DNA of 41,634 bases from a virus, in the IMG/VR virus record IMGVR_UViG_3300009285_000027. One strand, given 5' to 3'. The notes beneath the pieces were generated by a model. It had not been told where the DNA came from. It saw nothing but the letters and a program-made list of their open reading frames with translations, and ran no database searches. A program made the position numbers and the translations under genes. Within the stretch, counting starts at the first letter, position 1. Each line of letters begins with the position of its first letter. Of the stretch, positions 25,727-41,634 are shown one piece after another.

Positions 25727-28033
25727 ATGAAAAGAGCAATCTTGCTAACGACGCTGCTGGCAAATCAGGGCGACACCACCGCGCCGACGGTAGTGATTAC
25801 GTGCGACCAATCCAGTCCTACCCCCGTGTCGCCTCTGACGTTTACAGTTACATTCTCGGAGGATGTAACGGGTTTTGAGGTAGCGGATTTCGGAATTACC
25901 AACGGCACGAAAGGCACGTTTACGCCGGTTTCGGCAACGGTTTATACCTTATCCGTTGTTCCTAACGCACTTGCGACTGTGACGGCAACCATCGCTGCCG
26001 GGGTATGTCAGGATGCGTCGGGAAATCTTAACACGGAAGCGACTCCGTTGGCGATTGTGTCTACTGCCATTGTTGTGGATGATTTTACTGACATCCGTTC
26101 CGCTGGAGCAATCAATGGCACATCGGCAACACCCGGGCCGGGCGTTCGCTTATGTGTGGACGTGTCTAATAAATTATCCATAGATGGTTCTGATCTTGTA
26201 TGTGCAGGAGGTAAAGCTGTGCCCGCCGTTGGGGACCCTGGAATTTGGTGGAACGCAGTTACACGCTCCCCAGGTATATGTGCAATTGCCTGCCTTTACC
26301 CTGCCGCAACTACAATCGGCTTTCTGCGAGGAGTGGTATTCGACGGAAATCAAAGCGGGGACACCGTAGACGTGGCATTCAACCTCCCGAATTTTGGTTA
26401 CACTAACGCAAAAATCGGGGCTGCTAATTTCCCGGATTTCAACGGCGTGGTCTATGCTGCGCTTAATGATGTGTATTTGGCTATCGTCCAGAGGTCGGCA
26501 GGCTATCATTTGTTGCTAAAGGGCGGGGGAAGTCATCCCGATTGGGAACGTGCTTGGGTAACGCTGGCGGGGATAACAGAAAACCTTTATCCCGGCGTTT
26601 TAAATTATGATAAAGTTTTCAACGTGGATTATTTCAGGGTTGCGCAATTAGGCGCGCCGTGGACTGCCCCATCCGCTGATGGAACCATTATTGCCTCCCC
26701 TGCGGTGGATGCGGTATTTAGACTCACTGAACGATTTTTGATTTACCTGACTGTTACACTTACCAGTTCTGGAAACATCGAAGTGCACTACAAAATTCAA
26801 GATGCTACGAATTTCATGCGAATTTTGATTTCCAGCGCAGGCGCATATTCCATGGCCAAGGTGGTGGATGGCACACCGTCTACTCTGTTGAGCGGAACCG
26901 GTGTCACAAATGGTATGCGGGTTGGAATACGAGTTCTGCCGTTGAATCTGGGCACATGGTTTCATAAAGGAGACATCACGGGCGCGTCGTATTCATACGA
27001 CGAAACGTTCATGGCGGAGGTGGACGGGAAAATTGCAGATTTAGGAACTGGAGGAGCAATCACAAGTTTAGAAATATATCCATATTACATTGGGGGAGAT
27101 GCGCTGACAGAACTAACCGCAATGAATCATGCAACATTCAAGGGCTTCCAGGTCAACTCCGCGACGATGGCGAACGCTTCGTCGCGTCTCACTATCCCTA
27201 ACGGCGAGACAGGCGGCAATGCAAATCAAGTTGTGCATCCTGATGTAGTCAGGCCAAATCCAACAGGTAAATGGAATGGATATACCTACTGGATGGTTAT
27301 CAATCCATATCCTGAGAGCGACGAATCTAAAGAAAATCCGTGGATTGTAGTTTCCGACGACATGGAGACATGGATCGAACCGCCGGGGATAATCAATCCA
27401 GTCGTGGCGGCTCCGGAAACATCACACAACGCCGATCCTGATTTGTTTTACGATGCAGATTTAGACACTCTATATTTAGCCCAGCTTACGCCTGATGGAT
27501 TAAGCTTGACATCATCCATTGATGGCATAACGTGGGCAGCACAAGCCACAATCATAGCTGGATTTCCTGATGTATCACCATCTATCGCAAAAAAGGGGGA
27601 TGGCACATTTGAAATTTACAGTATATATCCTATTGTCGGACAGGAGGTTTGCCGTGTTCGGACATGTGCCACAATCGACGGCACGTGGAGCAGCCCGACA
27701 ACCTGTTTTACACGCTCGCCATACTCAGACCCACAAAACATGTGGCATTTGGATGTCTATCTTGAAAACGGAAACTATCTTGCTATGATAACCGTCCATG
27801 ACACGGGCGATTATATGTGGCTGGCGTCCTCAACGGATGGGAGACGCTGGCACATTGCCGACACTCCACTGATGTATAAATCTGTTTCGGGGTGGGATAA
27901 CAAATGGATTTATCGCGGTTCGGTGGGAATTCGCACAGCAACAGGATTTGATGTCATCTACTCCGCAAAATCGGATGCCGGTGCAGGAGATTGGGGTGCG
28001 GGCCGAACGCAATTGACTATCCCGCTGGTGTAA
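25727..28033 (+). CDS. Large multidomain protein: N-terminal bacterial Ig-like domain, central lectin-like region, C-terminal Asp-box-like beta-propeller (glycosidase-like)
   Basis: AGGAGG RBS. TAPTVVITC...LTFTVTFSEDVTGFEVADF is Ig-like. SSIDGITW and SSTDGRRW resemble Asp-box motifs. Confidence 0.65.
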   Translation: MKRAILLTTLLANQGDTTAPTVVITCDQSSPTPVSPLTFTVTFSEDVTGFEVADFGITNGTKGTFTPVSATVYTLSVVPNALATVTATIAAGVCQDASGNLNTEATPLAIVSTAIVVDDFTDIRSAGAINGTSATPGPGVRLCVDVSNKLSIDGSDLVCAGGKAVPAVGDPGIWWNAVTRSPGICAIACLYPAATTIGFLRGVVFDGNQSGDTVDVAFNLPNFGYTNAKIGAANFPDFNGVVYAALNDVYLAIVQRSAGYHLLLKGGGSHPDWERAWVTLAGITENLYPGVLNYDKVFNVDYFRVAQLGAPWTAPSADGTIIASPAVDAVFRLTERFLIYLTVTLTSSGNIEVHYKIQDATNFMRILISSAGAYSMAKVVDGTPSTLLSGTGVTNGMRVGIRVLPLNLGTWFHKGDITGASYSYDETFMAEVDGKIADLGTGGAITSLEIYPYYIGGDALTELTAMNHATFKGFQVNSATMANASSRLTIPNGETGGNANQVVHPDVVRPNPTGKWNGYTYWMVINPYPESDESKENPWIVVSDDMETWIEPPGIINPVVAAPETSHNADPDLFYDADLDTLYLAQLTPDGLSLTSSIDGITWAAQATIIAGFPDVSPSIAKKGDGTFEIYSIYPIVGQEVCRVRTCATIDGTWSSPTTCFTRSPYSDPQNMWHLDVYLENGNYLAMITVHDTGDYMWLASSTDGRRWHIADTPLMYKSVSGWDNKWIYRGSVGIRTATGFDVIYSAKSDAGAGDWGAGRTQLTIPLV

Positions 28034-28064
28034 ATAGAATGAACATTCGGTGAAAGGAAAAATC

Positions 28065-28520
28065 ATGACTTACGACAGCGAGAAGGATACGAGAGAACAC
28101 ATCCGGCACGTTGACCATTTCATGAAGGAAATCTTCTTCAAGTTGCTTGACCGAAAAGAAAAGCACGACGCAAGCAAGTTGGAGCAACCCGAAAAGGAAA
28201 CGTACGACACTCTTGTACCCAGGCTCAAACTTTTGAAATATGGAAGTCCTGAGTACGAGGCGCTTCTAAAGGAAATGAAACCCGCGCTTGCTCATCACTT
28301 CGCAAACAACCGTCATCACCCGGAACACTTCGAGAACGGCATTGACGATATGACCTTAGTAGACGTTGTGGAAATGTTTTGTGATTGGATGGCCGCAAGC
28401 ATCAGAAGCGATACAGGATTTTCAAAAGGTTTAGAGGTGAACAAAAAGCGTTTCAATATGTCTGACCAACTTTACAGGATATTTGCCAATACCGCTAAAG
28501 AACTCGGCTGGTATGAATAA
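28065..28520 (+). CDS. DUF5662-like helical (HD-like) protein
   Basis: ORF 28050..28520. The ATG at 28065 follows GAAAGGAAA. Motifs HIRHV...KHDASK...YGSPEY...LAHHFANNRHHPEHF match my recollection of the DUF5662 family. Confidence 0.6.
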   Translation: MTYDSEKDTREHIRHVDHFMKEIFFKLLDRKEKHDASKLEQPEKETYDTLVPRLKLLKYGSPEYEALLKEMKPALAHHFANNRHHPEHFENGIDDMTLVDVVEMFCDWMAASIRSDTGFSKGLEVNKKRFNMSDQLYRIFANTAKELGWYE

Positions 28521-28678
28521 AACGGATATTTGTTTGGAGACTGCATGAAACTAACCGCTCTTGGAGTGAAGACCTGGTGACGTATGACAACGTTATTTGT
28601 ATGACCCAACGCGTGGCGGCGGATGGCCGTAAACACAACGCCACCGATACTGACAGTAACGGTGTACAATATCAACAA

Positions 28679-28696
28679 CATCTCCGCGCGGAGATG
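28679..28696. promoter_or_regulatory. Perfect 18-bp palindrome catctccgc|gcggagatg
   Basis: Read directly. Lies 20 nt upstream of the ATG at 28717. Either an operator-like site or a short hairpin. Confidence 0.3.
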
Positions 28697-28716
28697 AATT
28701 AGTAAAAGGAGATCAT

Positions 28717-28950
28717 ATGCAGTACACTCCGAGACCTGAGGACTTCGAGAAACTTGAGAACAACTTTAAGTATCATGCGCCGAAGCCTGACCAACCCGAA
28801 CGCTATGAGGCAATTCGAGCGAAGGCAAAGGAATTTGCTGAGTTGCTTGTGAAAAATTGCCCGCCTAGCCGCGAGTTATCGGTGTCCCTCACCGAACTTG
28901 AAACGTCAGTTATGTGGGCAAATGCATCAATTGCCCGTAACGAAAAGTAA
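28717..28950 (+). CDS. Small helical-hairpin protein of a widespread phage family (possibly Acb2/Tad1-hairpin-like)
   Basis: 77 aa with AAAGGAGA RBS. Motif FKYHAP...ERYEAIRAKAKEFAELL...SRELSVSLTELETSVMWANASIA. The family assignment is from memory and unverified. Confidence 0.6.
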   Translation: MQYTPRPEDFEKLENNFKYHAPKPDQPERYEAIRAKAKEFAELLVKNCPPSRELSVSLTELETSVMWANASIARNEK

Positions 28951-28964
28951 AAGGAGAATTCTCA

Positions 28965-29171
28965 ATGAATAAGTTTTTGTCAGTTGTGGCGGCGTTGCCG
29001 TTGCCAATCCCCCTGTTTCTGCTGGCCGTGACGTTCATCTATGGCCTGTTGAAATATTTCTTCCCCGATCTGCCGTTCACGCAGGAGCAGATTCAGTACG
29101 TGCTTGAGCAGTTACTCGCACTTTTCGGCATCGTCCTGACTGCCCAGTTGCGAACGCGAGGCGTCTTGTAA
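28965..29171 (+). CDS. Small membrane protein, last rightward gene
   Basis: 68 aa with AAAGGAGA RBS and two hydrophobic helices. Confidence 0.5.
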   Translation: MNKFLSVVAALPLPIPLFLLAVTFIYGLLKYFFPDLPFTQEQIQYVLEQLLALFGIVLTAQLRTRGVL

Positions 29172-29199
29172 CAGACAACGCGGCTCCGATAGAAAAATG

Positions 29200-29237
29200 G
29201 AAACCTCCCGACTTCTGCTTTCGAGTCGGGAGGTTTC
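29200..29237. terminator. Bidirectional intrinsic terminator at the convergence of the two arms
   Basis: gaaacctcccgact (29200-29213) pairs with agtcgggaggtttc (29224-29237), a perfect 14-bp stem. The minus strand continues CAUUUUUCU and the plus strand ends in UUUCGUU. Confidence 0.8.
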
Positions 29238-29252
29238 GTTAGGAGGAGAGCC

Positions 29253-29378
29253 GCACAACGGCTTGCGTTACTGGCTTTGCGGTAGCCCGCAGTGCCGACA
29301 CAATTTACTAACCTCATTCGCCGGCTCGAACTTTTCGCAGGTGCATACCAGCAAAGTCCGCTGCACGCGGTGTTGGGC
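29253..29378 (-). mobile_element. attC-like site D (126 bp)
   Basis: The minus strand reads GCCCAAC-ACCGC-GTGCAGCGGAC ... GCCAGTAAC-GCAAGCC-GTTGTGC. The TAA stop of CDS 29268..29558 lies in the TAAC box. The 5' half pairs with the 3' half (CUUUGC/GCAAAG). Confidence 0.7.
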
Positions 29379-29558
29379 GGCGCGGCCTTGCTCCTCAACT
29401 TCGTATTGATAGAAACCGAGACAGCCGCCGACATTTCCAGCCAGTGAGCCACGCTTTATTTCTTTCGCAGCATCACGCACCAACGCGGCGATGTCTTCAA
29501 TCTCGTCGGCGTAGACAGTTAGGGTGAGTTTCAACTCTGCGTTTTCAACAATTGCCAT
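29268..29558 (-). CDS. Cassette ORF, hypothetical (C-terminal CxC...CxxC encoded by the attC-like element)
   Basis: 96-aa ORF. The last ~37 codons are read from attC-like site D. Confidence 0.6.
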   Translation of the reverse strand: MAIVENAELKLTLTVYADEIEDIAALVRDAAKEIKRGSLAGNVGGCLGFYQYEVEEQGRAAQHRVQRTLLVCTCEKFEPANEVSKLCRHCGLPQSQ

Positions 29559-29584
29559 AATACACTTTCCTTTCTTTATCTACC

Positions 29585-29603
29585 ATAGAACGGCTTGTGT
29601 TAC
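29585..29603 (-). mobile_element. Degenerate attC 3' half-site G
   Basis: The minus strand reads GGGTAAC-ACAAGCC-GTTCTAT. The stop of CDS 29600..29827 lies in the TAAC box. No matching RYYYAAC was found upstream. Confidence 0.35.
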
Positions 29604-29827
29604 CCGTGGCGGCGTACTCCTATCCACGGATAACTCATATAAAAAGTTTCAATCTCTGGATCATTGTGGCATAGTTTTGTAAATATTCTGCCATCTTTCC
29701 CTGTTTCAATATCGAAGCATGAAAATCTACCAGCCGCTAAAACTGCCGCTTTGATATTTTTATACGTGCGCCTCTTGCCGCGCAAATCAGACACGGTGTC
29801 AAAACTATCTAAATATATAACGCTCAT
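29600..29827 (-). CDS. Cassette ORF, hypothetical
   Basis: ORF 29600..29851. The ATG at 29827 follows GAAAGAAAGG. Confidence 0.55.
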   Translation of the reverse strand: MSVIYLDSFDTVSDLRGKRRTYKNIKAAVLAAGRFSCFDIETGKDGRIFTKLCHNDPEIETFYMSYPWIGVRRHG

Positions 29828-29857
29828 TTTGCCTTTCTTTCGGACAGCCACGAAGCC

Positions 29858-29963
29858 ACCTAACGGCTTGTATTACCCGCGAGTGGGCGGGATAAACTTT
29901 CAGACTAGATAAATGCCTGCAAACGGAGAGCATACCCATCATCCGCTGCACGCATTGTTAGGC
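29858..29963 (-). mobile_element. attC-like site E (106 bp, fully intergenic)
   Basis: The minus strand reads GCCTAAC-AATGC-GTGCAGCGGAT ... CCCGCCCACTCGCGGGTAAT-ACAAGCC-GTTAGGT. It starts 3 nt after the TAG of CDS 29967..30185. Confidence 0.75.
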
Positions 29964-29966
29964 GTG

Positions 29967-30185
29967 CTAATTTCCTTCAAGATACAAATAAGACTTTTCC
30001 TTGCGCTTATTTTCTTCACTCATGGTTGGATGTGAGCGCATTATCCAGCCACCTTCGTTTTCGACTCCCTGAACAACATGCCATTCATCTTCTGAAATAA
30101 TTTCATAATCGCTATAGCGACCATTCAGGATTTCCATATCATCAGGATATTGTTCCAACATCTTTTTCAATTGACCTACGTTCAT
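29967..30185 (-). CDS. Cassette ORF, hypothetical acidic protein
   Basis: ORF 29967..30188. The ATG at 30185 lies 7 nt after AAAGGAGA. Confidence 0.6.
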   Translation of the reverse strand: MNVGQLKKMLEQYPDDMEILNGRYSDYEIISEDEWHVVQGVENEGGWIMRSHPTMSEENKRKEKSYLYLEGN

Positions 30186-30209
30186 CACGTTTCTCCTTTC
30201 GCAAGAAAA

Positions 30210-30335
30210 CGACTAACGGCTTGCGTTAGCGGCAGGGCGAACAGATAGAGCAATATAAATTGCCATGTTCGTCCATCTTGAAAGCCGCACTGTTTACGTG
30301 GGTGCAAGCCCCGTCGGCTGCACGCGGTGTTAGAA
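30210..30335 (-). mobile_element. attC-like site C (126 bp)
   Basis: The minus strand reads TTCTAAC-ACCGC-GTGCAGCCGACGG ... GCCGCTAAC-GCAAGCC-GTTAGTC. The TAA of CDS 30226..30477 lies in the TAAC box. Confidence 0.75.
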
Positions 30336-30477
30336 GGCATCTCTCGCATTTCACCTTCTTGGGGGCAACTTTGCAATAGCGATACACTTCATGACCACAT
30401 TCAAGTTTCAACATGCGACCATAGCTATCACCATAAGATACTGACAAAACCTTTGAGTAATTTCTGTAATCTGACAT
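30226..30477 (-). CDS. Cassette ORF, zinc-ribbon-like small protein
   Basis: 83 aa with CGH...C, CERC and CSICSPC. The C-terminal ~36 codons are read from attC-like site C. Confidence 0.6.
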   Translation of the reverse strand: MSDYRNYSKVLSVSYGDSYGRMLKLECGHEVYRYCKVAPKKVKCERCLLTPRAADGACTHVNSAAFKMDEHGNLYCSICSPCR

Positions 30478-30484
30478 AGATGCC

Positions 30485-30554
30485 TTCTAACGGTTTGCGT
30501 TACTGGCGCAAGCCTTATAAGTTTATTTTTCACGCGCCTTGCGGCGGGTTGATC
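30485..30554 (-). mobile_element. attC-like site F (70 bp)
   Basis: The minus strand reads GATCAAC-CCGCCGCAAGGCGCG ... GGCTTGCGCCAGTAAC-GCAAACC-GTTAGAA. The internal dyad GCCGCAAGGC / GGCTTGCGCC pairs at 8 of 10 positions. Confidence 0.6.
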
Positions 30555-30834
30555 CGCATATCGCACACGTAACGGCATCTGTGCCGATCAAAGCATACTC
30601 CGCACCACAATCGGCACAAACCGGCTGCCGCGCGCTGGGATGGGCGGCCTCTGCTTCTTTGATTGCATTGTAAACCGCCTCGTAGGCGCGATTGTATATG
30701 TCTGTAAATTCCGCGCTCGGCCACGGAAGATGCCGTGCGATGGCATCACGTACTGGCGCCATAAACTTTTCGACGCGCTGATCACCCTCCCACCATGGTT
30801 TTATCGGGACTGTTACAGCCTCGTCTTTTTTCAT
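30523..30834 (-). CDS. Hypothetical protein with C-terminal zinc ribbon
   Basis: 103 aa with CADCG...CAICG and ATGA overlap to the upstream gene. Confidence 0.6.
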   Translation of the reverse strand: MKKDEAVTVPIKPWWEGDQRVEKFMAPVRDAIARHLPWPSAEFTDIYNRAYEAVYNAIKEAEAAHPSARQPVCADCGAEYALIGTDAVTCAICGSTRRKAREK

Positions 30835-31163
30835 TTCGTCTCCGTTCTGTTTGGGCGTGTGTTCTTTGACATTAGTTTTATCTGTTCTCTCTTATCGTTG
30901 AAGTATTTCAGTGCTTCCGGAATTCGATGAAACCAGCGCGGCAAAATTCGGTAGGGGTTGGGCGGAGTTATCAAACCCAGTGCGTTCAATATCTTTTCGT
31001 CTTGTGGAACGTAGTTTGCATCATCCACAAAACGCTGGAGAGTTCCAAACTTTATCTCTCCGCCGTAGTAGTCACGAGCGATGACGCGGTAGGATTTCAC
31101 GACCTTATGCAGGCGGCGCAGCTGTGACTTTGCTTTCCTGATTTTGGCTTTAGACGGTTTCAT
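30831..31163 (-). CDS. Hypothetical basic protein
   Basis: 110-aa Lys/Arg-rich ORF. Confidence 0.55.
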   Translation of the reverse strand: MKPSKAKIRKAKSQLRRLHKVVKSYRVIARDYYGGEIKFGTLQRFVDDANYVPQDEKILNALGLITPPNPYRILPRWFHRIPEALKYFNDKREQIKLMSKNTRPNRTETK

Positions 31164-31264
31164 TTGGTGGCGGCTTTCCGTATATGTTTTTTAGTAGCTC
31201 ACGCAGGTGTCACGGGCGGTGACGGGCATTGTAATTCTGGTTGTGCGACCCCAAAACGCCCGTT

Positions 31265-31387
31265 TCACTTCTTCGGCGGCTTGCGTAGGTCGCGCCAGGC
31301 GATGTACGCCAGGGCGCACGCGATCCCGGCCACAACCCATGCGACCTGTGCGCATAACTCCCAACCACGAGTGATACTGTCATCCAT
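31265..31387 (-). CDS. Possible 40-aa single-TM peptide (below the ORF-track cutoff)
   Basis: ATG (rc of 31385-31387) to TGA (31265-31267), giving MDDSITRGWELCAQVAWVVAGIACALAYIAWRDLRKPPKK. More protein-like than the overlapping Arg-rich 66-aa track ORF 31210..31410. Confidence 0.35.
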   Translation of the reverse strand: MDDSITRGWELCAQVAWVVAGIACALAYIAWRDLRKPPKK

Positions 31388-31395
31388 TTTTGTCT

Positions 31396-31429
31396 CACTT
31401 TTTCACTCACTTGTCACTTCACTTCACTT
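31396..31429. repeat. Cluster of cactt pentamers (five copies, three in tandem at 31415-31429)
   Basis: Read directly. On the gene-sense strand it is a purine-rich AAGTG array just upstream of the small TM ORF. Confidence 0.8.
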
Positions 31430-31480
31430 CGCTTTTTCGCTTTACGGGTAAATCTGCATTCCAGGCGTGTAAATAATATG

Positions 31481-32032
31481 TCAGTGGGGGATAGGCGGTA
31501 AAGGATTTCCATTGGCAATCTTACGCACAAGTTTCCAGTCCCCTACCGTATCGGGAGAGTTTGCGTGTTCGGATTTGCGGAACAACGCGCCGTAGTGCCT
31601 CCACTTGTTCTTGAGTTCTACAAACTCAGAGCGCGGAAACTTCCCTGACTTGACCCAGAAACCCTCAGTCGTATCAACCTTGTCCAAGCCCCAGTCACTC
31701 CGCATCTGAATTAGCGTGCGCGCAAATCCGCGTTCCTTGTCGAATTTTACAAGGTCAACCGTCATTTGATTTACGACGCCATTGATGCGGACTGGCGGCA
31801 TGATGCGTTGGGCGGGCCGCTTGGGAGCCTCTGGCGCGTGTGATGTGTATTCAAGGTCTGACTTCTCAGCTCGCAGTAAAAAGATTGCATGACAGCAAGC
31901 GACAAAGCCGAAACCAAAGTAAATGGAGTAACTGAACCACGGAGACCACTTACCGCCAAAGTTGTAAACCAAATAGACGCCTGCTAACAGGCTTGCATTT
32001 GGAAACAACCAGTAGTAATGCTGGACATACAT
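31481..32032 (-). CDS. Membrane protein (two N-terminal TM helices + soluble C-terminal domain)
   Basis: 183 aa with TAATG overlap to the upstream gene. Confidence 0.65.
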   Translation of the reverse strand: MYVQHYYWLFPNASLLAGVYLVYNFGGKWSPWFSYSIYFGFGFVACCHAIFLLRAEKSDLEYTSHAPEAPKRPAQRIMPPVRINGVVNQMTVDLVKFDKERGFARTLIQMRSDWGLDKVDTTEGFWVKSGKFPRSEFVELKNKWRHYGALFRKSEHANSPDTVGDWKLVRKIANGNPLPPIPH

Positions 32033-32283
32033 TACACGTCTCTCACTTGTTCGCGTCTCAGAATGATCGGCCCTTCCCCTTTCGACACATTACCGTGATA
32101 GCGATTGATATAGACTCGGAGTGTGCCGTCGGGCTGCTCGTAATATTTGCAATCATACGCGGCGATCCCCATGTCGCGCGTTTCTTTATCGTAGATCACG
32201 TTCCCATTTTTCAACATTCGGTTGACGCCGATAATGGTGATCGTGTCGATGGGGATTAGATCATCGCCTACAATCTCAGGCAT
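32032..32283 (-). CDS. Hypothetical protein
   Basis: ORF 32032..32394. The ATG at 32283 overlaps the upstream TAA (TAATG). Confidence 0.55.
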   Translation of the reverse strand: MPEIVGDDLIPIDTITIIGVNRMLKNGNVIYDKETRDMGIAAYDCKYYEQPDGTLRVYINRYHGNVSKGEGPIILRREQVRDV

Positions 32284-32420
32284 TATCTTTTTCTCAACAC
32301 AATCAGGAAGAACACAATCACAGCGGCAACGATTGGTAACGCCGCATCTCCAATCTCGACCCACTGTGCAACCACGATAATGGAAGAACCGCACGCGAAG
32401 ATGAAAGCAATGATGAGCAT
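32283..32420 (-). CDS. 45-aa double-TM mini-protein
   Basis: ORF 32283..32522. The ATG at 32420 follows AGGAA. Sequence MLIIAFIFACGSSIIVVAQWVEIGDAALPIVAAVIVFFLIVL. Confidence 0.45.
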   Translation of the reverse strand: MLIIAFIFACGSSIIVVAQWVEIGDAALPIVAAVIVFFLIVLRKR

Positions 32421-32448
32421 GATTCCTGCAATTCTGTTCCTGGACACG

Positions 32449-32565
32449 TTACGCCTCCGTGAAAATCTTCCACGCCCACCACAACAAAAACAGGAGTCCC
32501 GGAACTGTGAGCACAACGACAAGTAGAATTTCTCTGACGCGAGTAACCTTGTTTTTATCCATCAT
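32449..32565 (-). CDS. 38-aa single-TM mini-protein (below the ORF-track cutoff)
   Basis: ATGATG start (rc of 32560-32565) overlapping the upstream stop. Sequence MMDKNKVTRVREILLVVVLTVPGLLFLLWWAWKIFTEA. Confidence 0.35.
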   Translation of the reverse strand: MMDKNKVTRVREILLVVVLTVPGLLFLLWWAWKIFTEA

Positions 32566-32758
32566 TCACATCCTTGAAATAATAGCCTGGGTCGTCCTGC
32601 ATCGGCGGCGTTTCGTGCGGCTCAGCGGGAGTGTGGTCCGAGTGAAACCAGATGGGTGGCAGTGGCACGATGCCTTTCCGCCACAGAAACGAAATCAGGA
32701 TAGCGGCGATGAGGCCGAATACAAAAAACAGAATGGAGGCGTTCTCGGGATTACTCAT
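32555..32758 (-). CDS. 67-aa single-TM protein
   Basis: ATGA overlap to the upstream gene. TM segment ILFFVFGLIAAILISFLW. Confidence 0.5.
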   Translation of the reverse strand: MSNPENASILFFVFGLIAAILISFLWRKGIVPLPPIWFHSDHTPAEPHETPPMQDDPGYYFKDVNDG

Positions 32759-32967
32759 TTTGACCTGATGAAATTGATGCTGTTATCTTCTTCGTCAATC
32801 ACAACCTTTTCAACCCGGCCTGCACGATACGCCTGTTCAATTTCGCGCCTTACGCGGCGGGATGATCTCCGATTGATTTTCCATACTGCAAAACGCGAAC
32901 TGCCTTTTAATAAAATAAATGTGGCAGTAAAAAACAAAATACCAAATGGAAGGAACGAGTCTATCAT
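32755..32967 (-). CDS. 70-aa single-TM protein
   Basis: ATGA overlaps. TM segment FLPFGILFFTATFILL followed by a basic tail. Confidence 0.5.
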   Translation of the reverse strand: MIDSFLPFGILFFTATFILLKGSSRFAVWKINRRSSRRVRREIEQAYRAGRVEKVVIDEEDNSINFIRSK

Positions 32968-33164
32968 TGGTTGCGTTCCGTCTCATGCAGATGCAGAGTA
33001 CACACGTCATACCACCACTGCATAATGGCATTTTTCGCCTTACGCCCAACGTTATTCTCAATTTCACTCTCTGATGCGTTTGCGACAGCTTCAAAAAAAG
33101 TCTCGCGTTCTTTTGCAGGCAGATTGTCTTCCGAGTTTATAGCGGTCAACAGTTTCGTAAACAT
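32964..33164 (-). CDS. Hypothetical small protein
   Basis: 66-aa ORF with GGAAAGGA upstream of the ATG. Confidence 0.55.
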   Translation of the reverse strand: MFTKLLTAINSEDNLPAKERETFFEAVANASESEIENNVGRKAKNAIMQWWYDVCTLHLHETERNQ

Positions 33165-33175
33165 GCTTATATCCT

Positions 33176-33195
33176 TTCCAACGGTCTCGGTTAGC
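33176..33195 (-). mobile_element. Degenerate attC 3' half-site H
   Basis: The minus strand reads GCCGCTAAC-CGAGACC-GTTGGAA. The TAA of CDS 33191..33400 lies in the TAAC box. Confidence 0.35.
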
Positions 33196-33400
33196 GGCTC
33201 TTCTTGTAGCGGGAATTACGAATGTCATCCATGTCCATTGCATGGATTTCGCCACCACCTTGTTGAGTGGCTTCACGAACTCGCTCGATAGTATGATTGA
33301 GGTTGATGACGGCTGCGCCAAGATAGTTTTGCGCTCTCTCGTCTCCAATTTTCACAACACGCAATTTTTCTACAATACTCATCAATTCATCAAGATACAT
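33191..33400 (-). CDS. Hypothetical small helical protein
   Basis: ORF 33191..33457. The ATG at 33400 follows GAGGAGG. Confidence 0.6.
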   Translation of the reverse strand: MYLDELMSIVEKLRVVKIGDERAQNYLGAAVINLNHTIERVREATQQGGGEIHAMDMDDIRNSRYKKSR

Positions 33401-33420
33401 TTTGCCTCCTCGGGCGAATC

Positions 33421-33615
33421 GCCCAACGGTTTGCGTTACTGGCGGGGCTTTCTGCAATAAAAACAGTGGTCAAGATGCTTACTATTGACCTCTTTACAAT
33501 GTTTGCATCTCCAATACAACGGAAAGAATAATAGTCTGAGCAGCCAATCAATCATTAGATTCATCGTTTTCTGCTGATGCAGCTTGCCTGCCGTCTGGTG
33601 CACGCGGTGTTAGGC
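33421..33615 (-). mobile_element. attC-like site B (195 bp, unusually long centre)
   Basis: The minus strand reads GCCTAAC-ACCGC-GTGCACCAGACGG ... CCCCGCCAGTAAC-GCAAACC-GTTGGGC. The AT-rich centre includes the hairpin GGTCAA/TTGACC followed by TGTTTTTATT. Confidence 0.6.
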
Positions 33616-34219
33616 AGCCCCACTGCTGCGCCATTGCACCTGCTATGGAATCAAACGATATGGAGCGATTTTTTTCGCCATGATTAGCTTCTGTAAAATA
33701 ACGCTTCTTGGCTCTTGGTGTATTATCAATATAGGTTGGCTCTGGATAATCTGTCATCGTTTTCTTTCCAAATAAATCATCTTCTTTCCACCACCATAAT
33801 TTAGGTAAGTTCTTTAGCCAAAGGCATGTACGCTTTAATTGACGCTCACCAAAATAATAGGGGTGAATTATCTGATCTGGTTTCCTGTAAACTTTACCTG
33901 GATACCCTACGGGATTTTCAATGCACGCCATTGGTATGTTGCAATTCACAAATAGCATAAAAAACTTCATGGCTTCTTCTCGTAGCTCAACTCTACCTGG
34001 TTTGTTCCAAACGTGGTTAGCTGCGTAACTTAGATAAGTGCAAGGCGGGTGAGCAATGAGCAAATCCCAATTTTCAAAAAGGATGTCTCGCACATCACCC
34101 TGATAGTGATTGCCAGGTGTTTCACTCTCGCGGAAGTCGCATGACCAAGCATCATGTCCCCGAGCCGCGAAAGCGCTCCTGATCGTTCCCGTGAATTCAC
34201 ACGCTACTAAGATACGCAT
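33548..34219 (-). CDS. DNA cytosine-C5 methyltransferase-like protein (phage ACEF...PPCT type)
   Basis: MRILVACEFTGTIRSAF (motif I-like) and IAHPPCTYLS (PC motif). Confidence 0.7.
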   Translation of the reverse strand: MRILVACEFTGTIRSAFAARGHDAWSCDFRESETPGNHYQGDVRDILFENWDLLIAHPPCTYLSYAANHVWNKPGRVELREEAMKFFMLFVNCNIPMACIENPVGYPGKVYRKPDQIIHPYYFGERQLKRTCLWLKNLPKLWWWKEDDLFGKKTMTDYPEPTYIDNTPRAKKRYFTEANHGEKNRSISFDSIAGAMAQQWGCLTPRAPDGRQAASAENDESND

Positions 34220-34226
34220 AGAGGTT

Positions 34227-34353
34227 GCCTAACGGCTTGCGTTACCCGCAAGTGGCGGGCGTAGCATCTTCCCAAAGAATAGAATCACCTTCAGGGTGGA
34301 TAAGATAATTTTGGCGGGCGAATCCCACTTGTCGGGTGGACGCTGTGTTAGAT
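34227..34353 (-). mobile_element. attC-like site A (127 bp)
   Basis: The minus strand reads ATCTAAC-ACAGC-GTCCACCCGAC ... CGCCCGCCACTTGCGGGTAAC-GCAAGCC-GTTAGGC. The TAA of CDS 34242..34985 lies in the TAAC box. The next ATG (34219) is 8 nt after the core. Confidence 0.75.
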
Positions 34354-34985
34354 GCGGTAATGCCTTCAAGCGCGTCAAGGATTTCGCACCACAGATCGAG
34401 CGGGACTACTGCGCGTTCAGCCGCGCCAGATAAACCCTGTACCCCTGTTTGAGACCCACGCGGGGCGGACTCGTGACACTTGCGCCCATTCTTGCAAATC
34501 GGACGAGGCGACCAGCCAGGGACAAATCCCCAAAGATCGGTCGGCTTCATGTTCTTATCACCATACTGGCAATAAGTGATCGTTGTTCGTGGTAGAGTTT
34601 TCATAAATGGCAACTTACGTAATACTCCGCGTGGATTTTCGATAATGAAGGCTTTAGGTTTCATGTCTCGGATAATTTGCAAGGTATGCTTGACCAACCT
34701 TTGAGACAATTCAGCGTGTGGCGTTTTTGGAATATACGCTCTCGCACCACCACCCCAATGATGCCCCATTGCCGCAACACTAAACGCTTCACATGGCGGG
34801 GATGCCCACACAAAATCGAAATATCCGAACTTCTCTGCTGTCATTTCAAAAATATCAGCCGTTATTGTGCAGTTAAATTCTGGCACATAATCAAGCGTGA
34901 TGTATTCATGCCCGCGTTGTTCTATAAACGCGCGTCTTTGATTGCCACCAATGCCAGCGAACAGATCAAGGATTTTCATAAGCAT
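34242..34985 (-). CDS. DNA (cytosine-5)-methyltransferase
   Basis: Motif I DLFAGIGG, motif IV SPPCEAFS, ENPRG, and a C-terminal AVVPLDLW motif X-like segment. The start is ATG 34985 or 34979. The last ~40 codons are read from attC-like site A. Confidence 0.85.
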   Translation of the reverse strand: MLMKILDLFAGIGGNQRRAFIEQRGHEYITLDYVPEFNCTITADIFEMTAEKFGYFDFVWASPPCEAFSVAAMGHHWGGGARAYIPKTPHAELSQRLVKHTLQIIRDMKPKAFIIENPRGVLRKLPFMKTLPRTTITYCQYGDKNMKPTDLWGFVPGWSPRPICKNGRKCHESAPRGSQTGVQGLSGAAERAVVPLDLWCEILDALEGITASNTASTRQVGFARQNYLIHPEGDSILWEDATPATCG

Positions 34986-35001
34986 CTAACTACTGCGTAA
35001 G
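34984..35001 (-). mobile_element. Core-site-containing half-site I (5' boundary of the first methyltransferase cassette)
   Basis: The minus strand reads CGCTTAC-GCAGTA-GTTAGAT, and the GTTAGATG core overlaps the ATG at 34985. No RYYYAAC partner was found upstream. Confidence 0.45.
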
Positions 35002-35045
35002 CGGACGGTTTCCGCATAAGACACCGCCGGGGGACAAAAAGCCGC

Positions 35046-35486
35046 CTAGCATTCCCGCTCCGCGACCAGCGCACGGAGGTCTATCACTGACCACTTCCAT
35101 TTCTTCGGCATCGCTAGTTCCGTCAATTCCACCATGACGCTTTCACCGTAAGTTTTGAGCATGTAGTTATCATAATAATAATGCCAGTGGTTGTGCGCGC
35201 CGTTGCAGGTTGAGCATTGGCAATTACAATTTCTTAGATCGTACCGAATGCGCTGTTTGCCCGCTGGTATCCAATGACTAATCGTCAAACCTTCCGTTGC
35301 CCCGCAGGTGACACAGCAACCATCACGGGCTTTCACAAAATCGGCTGTCAGATTCCATAGTTTCTCTTCCAGTTGACGACGTTCCGATTTTGAACGGCGG
35401 CGCTTCTGCTTCTTTTGCTTCACCGGCTTGGGTTTACCGATGATGGTCATAACTTCGTGGTGTTGCGCGGCGCGGAGGGTATTCAT
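35046..35486 (-). CDS. ninG: NinG/Rap-like structure-specific (HNH-like) endonuclease
   Basis: Basic N-terminus, then CCVTCG...SHW...RIRYDLRN...CQCSTCN, matching the lambda NinG pattern C-x2-CG...H...R(F/Y)..RN...QC..CN. Confidence 0.65.
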   Translation of the reverse strand: MNTLRAAQHHEVMTIIGKPKPVKQKKQKRRRSKSERRQLEEKLWNLTADFVKARDGCCVTCGATEGLTISHWIPAGKQRIRYDLRNCNCQCSTCNGAHNHWHYYYDNYMLKTYGESVMVELTELAMPKKWKWSVIDLRALVAEREC

Positions 35487-36112
35487 TTACATCTTCCACA
35501 TTCGCAGGCGGGCGGAACCTTCGCGTCAATCGCGGCGAGAATGGCCTTCGCGTCAATCGCGGCGAGAATGGCCTTCGCTTTATTCTCCGCTTTCTCTGCC
35601 TGCCGTTCGTTGTACATGACGGGAATAACAAGGTGCTCGTATGTCTCACGGCAGCGGTAGACAGTGAAACATTGCCGCCAACCGCCGTAACGCATGTAAA
35701 GTTGGACCTGAATGAAATGCTTGTAGGAGGCCTTCATTTCCTTGCGGATACGCTCGAACTTGTCCACGGTCAACGATTTGATCTCCAGCAGGTCGTTATC
35801 CAGGGTCAACCCGTCGATGTGACCACACAGGCGGTCATCAAACGGGGCGATCACGCCGTATCCATTATCCATACAGCCGATACCTGATTTTTGCAGGAGC
35901 GACAAAACGCTCCGCTCCTGCTCATATCCTGCAAAGCAAAAACGATGCGTGGCTTCTGAGATTTCCCCTACGCCGTCAAAATATTCGTTGTACGCCGCGC
36001 GTGGGCAACCTGATATTTTGGAAATGCCGAGATACTCTCGGTGCTGATCCAGTCCGCTATTTGCGGCGATCTGCTGAGTGAGTGTATTTTGAATTTCGTT
36101 TACAGTTGTCAT
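35483..36112 (-). CDS. PD-(D/E)XK nuclease, Cas4/RecB-like with putative Fe-S cysteines
   Basis: Catalytic-type motif GHIDG...LEIKS. One N-terminal Cys (GCPRAAY) plus a C-terminal CECGRC cluster. Confidence 0.7.
   Translation of the reverse strand: MTTVNEIQNTLTQQIAANSGLDQHREYLGISKISGCPRAAYNEYFDGVGEISEATHRFCFAGYEQERSVLSLLQKSGIGCMDNGYGVIAPFDDRLCGHIDGLTLDNDLLEIKSLTVDKFERIRKEMKASYKHFIQVQLYMRYGGWRQCFTVYRCRETYEHLVIPVMYNERQAEKAENKAKAILAAIDAKAILAAIDAKVPPACECGRCK
35518..35578. repeat. Perfect 27-bp tandem duplication (2.3 copies), in frame, inside the nuclease gene
   Basis: ccttcgcgtcaatcgcggcgagaatgg occurs at 35518-35544 and 35545-35571, then ccttcgc. Encodes AILAAIDAK twice. Confidence 0.95.
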
Positions 36113-36303
36113 TCTTTCACCACAATCAGCGGAATAGCTGGAAAGTGATAGTTGCGATATGGCTTGCCAGTCTTGCCATTGATGCGGACCTCGAAGATGT
36201 CGCGTACATCTACAATCGTTACATGCTTGCCGCGTATCCGCATGAGCGAAATTATGCGTCGCTTACGCCGAATGGTTGTACCGCAGTGGGGGCATTTCAT
36301 CAC
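36109..36303 (-). CDS. Small zinc-ribbon protein
   Basis: 64 aa with CPHCG at the N-terminus and ATGA overlaps. Confidence 0.55.
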   Translation of the reverse strand: MMKCPHCGTTIRRKRRIISLMRIRGKHVTIVDVRDIFEVRINGKTGKPYRNYHFPAIPLIVVKE

Positions 36304-36539
36304 TTATCCCTCAATACAAGTTTGACAGTAAATTTGCCCTTCACAAAATCTGCGAACTCCACACGATATGACATCCCATTTAACTCCACGTTCAGTCCCG
36401 CCTTCGGGAGTTTTGAAATTGTATGAGATGTAGCCCCTTTCTCTTCGGCTGATTTGATTTTTGCGGTCAAATCGGCAATGTTTGAAAGGTCAATTTCGCT
36501 CAATTGCTTGATGTTACCTAATTCATCTCTGCTTTGCAT
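36300..36539 (-). CDS. Hypothetical small protein
   Basis: ORF 36300..36593. The ATG at 36539 follows AAAGGAGTAAAC. Confidence 0.55.
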   Translation of the reverse strand: MQSRDELGNIKQLSEIDLSNIADLTAKIKSAEEKGATSHTISKLPKAGLNVELNGMSYRVEFADFVKGKFTVKLVLRDK

Positions 36540-36541
36540 GT

Positions 36542-36799
36542 TTACTCCTTTGGTTTCTTTATCCATTCCTCTGACTGCTCCACGTGTTCCCATTCCACAA
36601 CGGCGCGATCATAACCAAACTTGCGGACCAGTCTGGAAATGGTGGAGGCAGAGACAGGTATCCCCGTTTCCTTCGTGACGTATGCGGCGACCTTGCGAGT
36701 ACTGGTCATGCCACGCACTTTTAGATATTTCTCAATCGCCTTGCGTACCTGGGTCTGTCCTTCAAATGTTCGTGCTGTTCGTTGTACTGTTTCATTCAT
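36542..36799 (-). CDS. HTH DNA-binding regulator
   Basis: 85 aa. STRKVAAYVTKETGIPVSASTISRLV looks like a helix-turn-helix. Its own promoter sits directly upstream. Confidence 0.65.
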   Translation of the reverse strand: MNETVQRTARTFEGQTQVRKAIEKYLKVRGMTSTRKVAAYVTKETGIPVSASTISRLVRKFGYDRAVVEWEHVEQSEEWIKKPKE

Positions 36800-36805
36800 G
36801 TTCTA

Positions 36806-36834
36806 ATTATACGTCAGCTGCAAACAAATTACAA
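36806..36834 (-). promoter_or_regulatory. Sigma70-type promoter placed for a leaderless HTH-regulator mRNA
   Basis: The minus strand has TTGTAA (36834-36829), a 17-nt spacer and TATAAT (36811-36806). Exactly 6 nt (TAGAAC) separate the -10 from the ATG at 36799. No SD sequence. Confidence 0.5.
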
Positions 36835-36843
36835 CCCCCAATT

Positions 36844-37089
36844 TCAGCCCTCGGCGGGCTGCGGAATTTCTACCAATTTTCGGAGGTACGCGTTACGCCC
36901 GTTCACCTCTCCAAATGGTTCATCCATTTCGCGATCCAGAAATGGGCAGTGGCTCTCGTAGCAATGCGAAAGGCCTCCGAGTTGTTCGTCCATTATCAAG
37001 CCGAAAATAACCTTTTTGCAGTTGTCGAAACAGTAGTGATTTATTTCCGCCTTTTGCAATTCCCAAACAGTAACAAATATTTTATCCAT
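36844..37089 (-). CDS. Hypothetical protein
   Basis: ORF 36844..37134. The ATG at 37089 follows AAGGATAAC. Confidence 0.55.
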   Translation of the reverse strand: MDKIFVTVWELQKAEINHYCFDNCKKVIFGLIMDEQLGGLSHCYESHCPFLDREMDEPFGEVNGRNAYLRKLVEIPQPAEG

Positions 37090-41557: not shown

Positions 41558-41634
41558 TGCCCCCGGCCCGTGCGAGCCGGGGGCGGTAACGCAAGTTCAG
41601 GCGCTAACGGACGTGCGCAACATTTTTGTAATTG
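41558..41634. repeat. Second copy of the 77-bp contig-end redundancy
   Basis: Identical to 1-77. Confidence 0.95.

Follow-up and report, generated by a model that had tools for sequence, protein, structure and literature searches.

The 41,634-nucleotide (nt) stretch of DNA from IMG/VR record IMGVR_UViG_3300009285_000027, analyzed at its full length and referred to here as the window, is a complete tailed-phage genome of ~41.5 kb. We conclude, with a probability of roughly 85%, that its minus strand carries, from 29253 to 35004, a cluster of attC sites lacking an integron integrase (CALIN), which is built from a Chloroflexota family of attC sites and lies in the early/accessory operon of the phage. 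A sequence-only reading had pointed out that the core at the 5′ edge of several cassettes in this region is the exact complement of the R″ box of that same cassette and had attributed the match to G|TT site-specific recombination rather than to a shared regulatory motif. Three demonstrated properties of the attC family carry our conclusion: the complementarity recurs across its members, homology between related sites breaks at GTT, and the sites are associated with IntI integron integrases. These properties support the view that the boundary pattern marks integrase cut sites.

That R″ should complement the upstream core is textbook integron biology. Each cassette begins at the TT of a core (G|TTRRRY), ends at the G of the following core, and consists of a short open reading frame (ORF) followed by an attC. 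An integron integrase cuts the folded bottom strand, which is the plus strand of the window, within the conserved AAC of its R box. The six bases that follow each G thus belong to the downstream cassette and pair with its R″, hence the pattern. The ends of the attC sites were located with two motifs, GCCTAAC-ACCGC-GTGCAGC (R″-spacer-L″) at the 5′ end and GTAAC-GCAAGCC-GTTAGGC (L′-spacer-R′) at the 3′ end. Read on the minus strand, the array extends between the NinG gene and a terminator and comprises five full attCs (A, B, C, E, and H) and three remnants that retain only their 3′ ends (a lone core, F, and G):

34984-35004, minus strand: lone attC 3′ half (L′-spacer-R′), whose core GTTAGAT (34990-34984) is the 5′ boundary of cassette 1
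34233-34989, minus strand: cassette 1, consisting of the MT1 ORF (34985-34242, C5-type DNA methyltransferase) and attC A
34227-34353, minus strand: attC A, 127 nt, with R″ ATCTAAC (34353-34347) and R′ GTTAGGC (34233-34227)
33427-34232, minus strand: cassette 2, consisting of the MT2 ORF (34219-33548, DNA methyltransferase) and attC B
33421-33615, minus strand: attC B, 195 nt, with R″ GCCTAAC (33615-33609) and R′ GTTGGGC (33427-33421)
30491-33426, minus strand: 2.9-kb block that separates core B from core F and holds ~10 small ORFs
30485-30548 (5′ end approximate), minus strand: site F, a short degenerate attC with R′ GTTAGAA (30491-30485) and a decayed R″-like part
30211-30490, minus strand: cassette 4, consisting of an ORF of 83 amino acids (aa; 30477-30226) and attC C (30335-30211), with R″ TTCTAAC and R′ GTTAGTC
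29858-30216, minus strand: cassette 5, consisting of a 73-aa ORF (30188-29967) and attC E (29963-29858), with R″ GCCTAAC and R′ GTTAGGT
29585-29863, minus strand: cassette 6, an 83-aa ORF (29851-29600) ending in remnant G (L′-spacer-R′, 29603-29585, core GTTCTAT)
29253-29584, minus strand: cassette 7, consisting of a 96-aa ORF (29558-29268) and attC H (29378-29253), the last site, with R″ GCCCAAC and R′ GTTGTGC
29196-29245: hairpin with a 13-bp GC-rich stem followed by a T-run, read directly in the sequence as AAACCTCCCGACT-CGAAAGCAGA-AGTCGGGAGGTTT-CCATTTTTCT

The window sites fit the forms R″ RYYYAAC and R′ GTTRRRY, with TTCTAAC, GTTAGTC, and GTTGTGC each departing from consensus at one position. 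All of the heptamers quoted in the sequence-only reading were found in place on the minus strand. When R″ was compared with the upstream core, it matched at 7/7 positions in A, B, and C, 6/7 in E, and 3/7 in H, versus 5/7, 6/7, 5/7, 6/7, and 6/7, respectively, when it was compared with the element's own core. The scores reported earlier (three cassettes perfect with the upstream core and a fourth, GTTAGTC against GCCTAAC, at 6/7) were thus reproduced exactly, and the rule that R″ favors the upstream core over its own holds with perfect matches in three of the four cassettes listed at that time, whereas the fifth complete site, H, which had been left off that list, does not obey it. For site C, the match extends to 10/10 when R″ and three further nt are set against core F and its next three nt. 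The R″ of site H (29378-29372), by comparison, reaches its 3/7 against core G and 5/7 against core E but 6/7 against its own core, or 9/10 with three flanking bases. The same R″ is also the perfect complement of core B (33421-33427); this may reflect a former arrangement of the cassettes or be a coincidence, since GTTGGGC is common in the family.

When the eight cores were permuted exhaustively over the five R″ boxes, three or more perfect matches arose with P = 0.017, and the observed summed score was equaled or exceeded with P = 0.063. The in-window complementarity taken alone is therefore a modest signal, suggestive rather than decisive. The earlier estimate that chance would yield a match in about 1/16 of cassettes was of the right order, as a random core of the family is a perfect match in ~11% of cases.

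The signal is much stronger across the family. Of 139 cassettes on viral contigs, R″ was perfectly complementary to the upstream core in 90 and to its own core in 19; when random cores were substituted, the count averaged 15.6 and never exceeded 28 in 2,000 draws. In a stricter set, the match with the upstream core was perfect for 87 of 119 cassettes from viral contigs and 122 of 150 from bacterial metagenome-assembled genomes (MAGs). Scored by position in 273 cassettes, the downstream R″ and its 5′ flank are complementary to core positions 4, 6, and 7 and to the two bases that follow at frequencies of 0.87 to 0.91, and the frequency is still 0.75 at the third base past the core; the corresponding values for the element's own core, 0.40 to 0.66, equal the compositional expectation. 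Since pairing continues past the core throughout the family, the R stem is ~10 bp long, and the sequence that starts at core position 4 moves as part of the downstream cassette.

A breakpoint analysis located the same boundary by homology. We compared 1,014 pairs of attC sites from different loci whose variable parts were at least 85% identical and whose downstream DNA was unrelated. Identity was 1.00 at the G, T, and T of the core, fell to background at core position 4, and was ~0.27 by position +11. A concrete case is the MT1 cassette, for which similarity between the window and viral locus L089 ends exactly after the CCGTT of the core. A compensatory change also distinguishes the two loci: in the window, the core is GTTAGAT and its R″ partner is ATCTAAC, whereas L089 has GTTAGGT and ACCTAAC. 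Because G, T, and T are invariant, the exact cut cannot be placed within these three bases by homology; its position at G|TT follows established integron biochemistry (PMC5027507). The homolog of the cassette 5 protein (p73) in viral locus L010 was also tried as a source of exact boundaries, but its similarity sets in only ~13 nt into the cassette and stops within a truncated attC, making it uninformative.

Since the element ends had been placed by motif, they were checked with an unbiased attC call, which the sequence-only reading had itself named as a check. A covariance model built from 80 MAG sites only was run on both strands of the whole window with filters off. It found A at 81.8 bits (E = 1.4e-20), E at 59.1 bits (E = 1.4e-14), C at 54.2 bits (E = 2.7e-13), and H at 53.5 bits (E = 4.2e-13). 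Site F was a weak match (16.5 bits, E = 0.0026), and B was recovered as two weak partial matches (33618-33491 and 33474-33418). The lone core (34990-34984) and site G were not called by this model, and it returned no other credible site in the window; all strong matches were on one strand. Because the model recovers the same sites, the element ends were kept as first placed. The pattern used to fetch the MAG sites came from the window itself; their terminal motifs are thus shared by construction and are not independent evidence, and the independent information lies in what these MAG sites are.

They proved to be sites of chromosomal integrons. The 16-mer TAACGCAARCCGTTRG occurs in >119 IMG/VR contigs, many of which hold 2 to 4 copies, and the two-ended attC pattern occurs at >120 loci in a collection of species-representative genomes. 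About 80% of 120 such genome loci are in Chloroflexota MAGs, whose bins include Anaerolineae, Anaerolineales, Caldilineales, Thermoflexales, and "Chloroflexia"; as many as 9 sites were counted within 8 kb, and the largest of the contigs measure several Mb. The family has the terminal consensus GCCYAAC-AMAGC-GTGCA...GTAAC-GCAARCC-GTTRGGC and lengths of 89 to 132 nt. When IntI1, which served as a tblastn probe only, was searched against these loci, full-length homologs with 42 to 53% identity were found adjoining the sites in 10 MAG loci and several IMG/VR loci. All eight of the IntI homologs tested pass the curated NCBIfam model TIGR02249 ("integron integrase"), scoring 368 to 490 bits against a cutoff of 265. 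Given that the family adjoins TIGR02249 integrases, the sequence evidence identifies the window repeats as attC sites of a Chloroflexota chromosomal-integron family found mainly in Anaerolineae, and this membership makes Chloroflexota, mainly Anaerolineae, the probable host group of the phage. An attC site can in this way serve as a clue to the host of an uncultured phage. Sites of the same family were also seen on contigs binned elsewhere, namely, L176 (Ignavibacteriota, on a 1.6-Mb contig), L141 (Lentisphaeria), and L144 (Nitrospirae), which hints at cassette spread across phyla or at binning errors.

Integrases that adjoin the family elsewhere have no counterpart in the window. None of its 66 ORFs matches PF00589 or other recombinase families, and tblastn with IntI1 over the window gave no match. 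Likewise, no attI was found in the window, where the 5′ boundary of the array is a truncated attC right after NinG, and the combination of intI, attI, and a promoter adjoining the array that defines a complete integron is lacking. What the window does contain is four strong model matches plus B and F within 5.1 kb on one strand, against the two or more clustered attCs that make a CALIN. With no integrase in the window, the array is a CALIN, a term defined by Cury et al. in 2016 for clusters of attC sites lacking an integron integrase (PMC4889954).

These results bear on whether the repeats might instead be a regulatory or structural motif (terminators, REP-like elements, or start-associated sequences) with only a superficial likeness to attC. 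The repeats are imperfect palindromes that lie between genes or at gene ends, on one strand and within one operon, and attC sites are themselves thought to act as weak terminators (PMC9892861). An Rfam scan of the region gave no match, which would also suit a motif of another kind; to our knowledge, however, attC is not an Rfam family. Short repeats between the small accessory genes of one operon are known from the promoter-early stem-loops of T4 and the start-associated sequences of mycobacteriophages. Those repeats lack a crossover signature, an integrase, and circular-permutation logic, whereas the attC family has all three. Moreover, a regulatory motif does not predict pairing with the upstream rather than the own core, a homology break at GTT, adjacency to TIGR02249 integrases, or orthologous cassettes in unrelated backbones. 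We consider this explanation effectively refuted by the complementarity, the integrase adjacency, and the GTT breakpoints, and give it only a very slight chance. The choice that the sequence-only reading made in favor of G|TT recombination is accordingly supported, by IntI adjacency, family-wide complementarity, and the GTT break as well as by the compensatory change in L089 and a fold backed by covariation.

That fold was derived from an alignment of 122 members of the 121- to 132-nt class, arranged in circular-cassette form, in which the element's own G is joined to the TTRRRY of the upstream core. The consensus has an R stem of ~10 bp, an unpaired spacer of 4 to 5 nt on one arm and 6 to 7 nt on the other, an L stem, and a variable center. 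For the 24 predicted pairs, 94% of cells are paired, versus 27 to 40% when the partner is slid by 1 to 3 columns, and 18 of the 24 show double (compensatory) changes. Two bulged top-strand bases, C16 and A22 counted from the start of R″, correspond to a G and a T on the bottom strand. The bottom-strand extrahelical pair of the window family is thus G16/T22, compared with G16 and T23 in attC_aadA7 and G16, T20, and T24 in VCR2 (PMC5027507). These canonical attC sites (Nivina et al. 2016, PMC5027507) share with the window family the R″ RYYYAAC and R′ GTTRRRY boxes, the L box, an unpaired central spacer, a variable terminal region, and a crossover in the conserved AAC/GTT. The family differs from them in its sequence outside the boxes, its ~10-bp R pairing, its spacer of 4 to 5 and 6 to 7 nt, and its lengths, which form three discrete classes at around 91, 110, and 127 nt. 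Over loci L001 to L119, we observed these classes near 91, 110, and 125 to 129 nt, ~18 nt apart, which suggests a modular central region.

The genome that carries the array is complete. Bases 1 to 77 of the window are repeated exactly at 41558 to 41634, and a direct repeat of 77 nt at the two ends is the mark of an assembly that is circular or terminally redundant. The plus strand encodes, from ~3.3 to 28 kb, a small and a large terminase, a portal, a prohead protease/major head protein, a tape-measure protein, and tail proteins, while the minus strand encodes, from ~41.5 to 29.2 kb, a replication O-like protein, a Cas4-like exonuclease, NinG, the two DNA methyltransferases, and many small ORFs. 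With terminase, portal, major capsid, and tail genes and closed ends, the window has the full set of features expected of a tailed phage. A BLAST search for near and distant relatives among 50,697 GenBank phages found none, returning only short methyltransferase matches.

An in silico joining of a phage contig to a piece of a host chromosomal integron would offer a trivial explanation for attC sites in such a genome, given that the record comes from a metagenome assembly and that repeats can mislead assemblers. However, phage genes flank the array on both sides in one co-oriented operon, and the contig closes on itself. The same structure was also assembled independently from different samples in ENA, JGI, and Logan data: an exact-protein look-up across these sources found the same phage in at least 24 contigs, and the six that were compared over positions 28000 to 37000 were 99.2 to 100% identical to the window and carried the same array. 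Such repeated assembly excludes a chimera, to which we assign a negligible probability. The six near-identical assemblies included no variant with other cassette content, so no current mobility is seen in this array.

Another possibility is that the phage uses its attC sites to insert its whole circular genome into a host integron by means of the host IntI, through attC × attI or attC × attC recombination. CTX-phi, which borrows XerCD, provides a parallel for the insertion of such a giant cassette. The window lacks an integrase of any kind and carries several intact attCs of the host family, and integrases recombine any two attCs. No attC-flanked prophage was found, however, and the sole match to a window protein in the 120 MAG loci was to MT2 (L226, 42%) rather than to the backbone. 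No lysogeny module was seen among the window ORFs, and for this purpose one attC would suffice, without need of an array. We regard this possibility as quite improbable.

The cassettes themselves appear to have been acquired. MT1 matches PF00145 (E = 7e-10) and phrog_757 (E = 5e-24), and MT2 matches phrog_757 (E = 7e-50). The MT1 ortholog in L089 is 79% identical in protein and ~80% in DNA, with 94% identity over the attC. The lone half-site at the upstream end of the array, which begins 41 nt past the NinG stop codon, aligns (~24/30 nt) with the 3′ end of a complete attC that precedes this ortholog. Homologs of MT2 with ~42% identity were found in five viral loci and one MAG locus (L226), all with the same attC family, and p73 is 93% identical to a protein in L010, which has a different backbone. 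Homologs of cassette proteins thus sit in attC-bearing viral contigs with unrelated backbones. Conversely, no attC was found in the fetched stretches around homologs of the exonuclease (53 to 58% identity), and none was found in relatives of the major head protein (≤68% identity) by a regular-expression screen or, in eight loci, by the model. Since distant relatives of the backbone lack attC in the stretches fetched, the cassettes were acquired and are not part of the backbone. An exonuclease query of IMG/VR found no syntenic relatives with other cassette content, and the exact-protein look-up yielded nothing beyond near-identical copies of this phage, array included.

The cassettes would have been assembled by an IntI provided in trans, either from the host chromosome or from a coinfecting phage that encodes IntI; alternatively, they may have been taken over as blocks from such an array. 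All of the cassettes are co-oriented with the phage operon, and a terminator follows the last site, so that they would be transcribed by read-through from the operon. Orphan methyltransferases are a classic phage counter to restriction, and the cargo of two methyltransferases and small proteins would serve the phage, most plausibly against host restriction.

Several observations weigh against our reading of the array. The window has neither integrase nor attI, and with no cassette-content variant among the six near-identical assemblies, activity in this phage is unproven. Site H breaks the upstream-core rule, three of the eight sites are half-sites or degenerate, and B is expanded to 195 nt. 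In L010, similarity to the p73 cassette begins past the core rather than right at it. Folds of single elements as DNA are only marginally above those of shuffled sequences (z = -1.0 to -2.3), and minimum-energy folds of the window elements often choose pairings unlike the consensus; because these single-sequence folds are weak, the structural claim rests on covariation. Compared with what we take to be the sequence of attC_aadA7, the R′-side spacer has one extra base. The host assignment is based on the attC family only, and many of the IMG/VR contigs with the family may be misclassified chromosomal arrays.

Some of these observations would be explained if the array were a fossil, that is, if the G|TT events took place in an ancestral chromosomal or phage integron, the cassettes were then transferred en bloc by illegitimate or homologous recombination, and inert, decaying sites have persisted only because the cargo genes, with ORFs that overlap them, are useful. 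The 5′ boundary shows a truncated attC where a clean insertion site might be expected, only remnants are left of F and G, B is expanded, and the array is the same in six independent assemblies of a genome without IntI. Furthermore, four ORFs end at the conserved L′ TAA, so their attCs are under coding constraint. Set against this, four sites still score 54 to 82 bits with intact R and L boxes, and the perfect matches of 7/7 to 10/10 at A, B, and C imply little decay since they were formed. In addition, the probable hosts carry a cognate IntI, phage contigs that encode IntI exist, and integrase-less phage attCs have been recombined by IntI1 experimentally (PMC9892861). We consider the fossil explanation a serious contender at somewhat less than even odds. 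As for the CALIN itself, the truncated sites, the expanded B, the failing H, and the invariant assemblies lead us to infer an array that is old and now largely static in this phage, and partly decaying. Because A, C, E, and H retain intact R and L boxes, they may nevertheless be open to mobilization in trans.

The window array is not the first of its kind, since phage CALINs with methyltransferase cargo were published in 2023. In temperate as well as virulent phages, Qi et al. described 17 CALINs along with some complete integrons, with methyltransferases among the phage cassettes, and showed that IntI1 recombines phage attCs (Front Microbiol, PMC9892861); integrons in Chloroflexi were mentioned by Cury et al. 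(PMC4889954). The array in the window joins these published phage CALINs, with which it shares co-oriented attC cassettes, the lack of a nearby IntI, methyltransferase cargo, and G|TTRRRY junctions; its host phylum, attC family, and size are new. It differs from them in having another attC family and probably another host phylum, in being larger, and in that most of its ORFs run into the attC and stop at the L′ TAA. IntI1 recombination was shown for those phage sites, whereas the window sites are known from sequence. With the chromosomal integrons of Chloroflexota/Anaerolineae, the window array shares the attC family (54 to 82 bits), the upstream-core rule, and the 10-bp R stem; the chromosomal arrays differ in that they adjoin an IntI, which is mostly divergent from the cassettes.

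A complete phage of a poorly studied phylum thus holds cassettes with intact recombination signatures, and a single attC family ties hundreds of viral-contig sites to Chloroflexota chromosomal integrons: the MAG-derived model gave at least 300 matches at E ≤ 1e-3 in the first 100 viral loci. This supports phages as carriers of cassettes between cells, and the upstream-core boundary test generalizes to a simple, alignment-free check for genuine cassettes.

Viral and chromosomal arrays of the family differ in several respects, with the caution that some IMG/VR contigs may be chromosomal arrays classed as viral. IntI is divergent from the array in most MAG loci (L215, L238, L159, L126, L173, L162, L184, and L127 were compared) but co-directional with the cassettes in IMG/VR loci L034, L053, L075, L079, L102, and L103 and in one MAG locus. 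The IntIs of viral contigs are 45 to 55% identical to those of MAGs and form two pairs, and in L079 an IntI, an attC, and a large terminase lie within 5 kb. In a comparison for which the MAG sample was biased toward 102- to 132-nt sites by the search pattern, the median spacer was 271 nt in viral contigs versus 658 nt in MAG arrays, and 76% of ORFs in viral contigs ended deep inside the attC, often at the L′ TAA, whereas 88% in MAG arrays ended before R″. In the window, the four ORFs that stop at the L′ TAA (GTAAC) are 34985-34242, 30477-30226, 29851-29600, and 29558-29268. From their sequence, attC sites appear to supply stops in all three frames, through the TAA of R″, the TAA of L′, and the TAG of the core.

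These differences raise the idea that Chloroflexota phages run an integron system of their own, with a co-directional IntI, compact cassettes, attC-built stops, and antidefense cargo, and that the window is an integrase-less member of it, shuffled in trans. We put this forward tentatively and think it rather unlikely as it stands; if it is true, the integron "biobanks" of defense genes in bacteria would have a counterpart on the side of the phages. More generally, phages may draw counterdefense genes, such as methyltransferases and possibly Acb2/Tad1-like proteins, from the cassette pool. A 77-aa protein with an Acb2/Tad1 domain (PF24729, E = 1.6e-20) is encoded just beyond the array on the opposite strand (28717-28950, plus strand). 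We take the PF24729 hairpin domain to be the fold of anti-CBASS and anti-Thoeris sponges. A homolog with 60% identity is found in L103 (562-762, minus strand), where it is preceded by a TIGR02249 integrase and followed by an attC, which makes it the first cassette there.

Within the array, four short cassettes of 274 to 359 nt each, those of C, E, remnant G, and H, close the series, and the 83-aa ORF of cassette 4 has as its stop the conserved L′ TAA of attC C. Site F overlaps the 3′ end of ORF 30834-30523. Site G matches the 3′ motif with 5 mismatches, and a search of the sequence for the 5′ halves of site G and the lone upstream core found none. The ends of attC B match the family motifs, but the site is ~70 nt longer than its siblings. 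Its expanded center contains a 55-aa ORF (33603-33436) with CxxC motifs, and the expansion may be an insertion into the attC or an exapted coding region. The 2.9-kb block downstream of B is either phage backbone or a multigene cassette; its ORFs gave no Pfam or PHROG match and no homologs in attC-bearing loci.

The hairpin at 29196-29245 lies directly after the core of the last attC, between converging gene blocks, and is flanked by runs of A and T. From this arrangement, it is probably a bidirectional terminator that ends the cassette-bearing operon. A simple scan did not list it as such, since that scan admits loops of no more than 8 nt and the hairpin has one of 10 nt.

Two differences from related sequences lie outside the attC sites. 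A 47-nt segment at 33252-33298 is present in the window but absent from the six otherwise 99.2 to 100% identical assemblies; it alters the call of a small ORF (88 aa in the window versus 53 aa in the other six) and is unrelated to attC. The gene for the Cas4-like exonuclease contains an exact 27-nt tandem duplication (35518-35571), seen in the protein as the peptide repeat AILAAIDAK. The closest database homolog of this exonuclease (P0001, 96% identity) is 9 residues shorter, and the copy number of the 27-nt repeat appears to vary.

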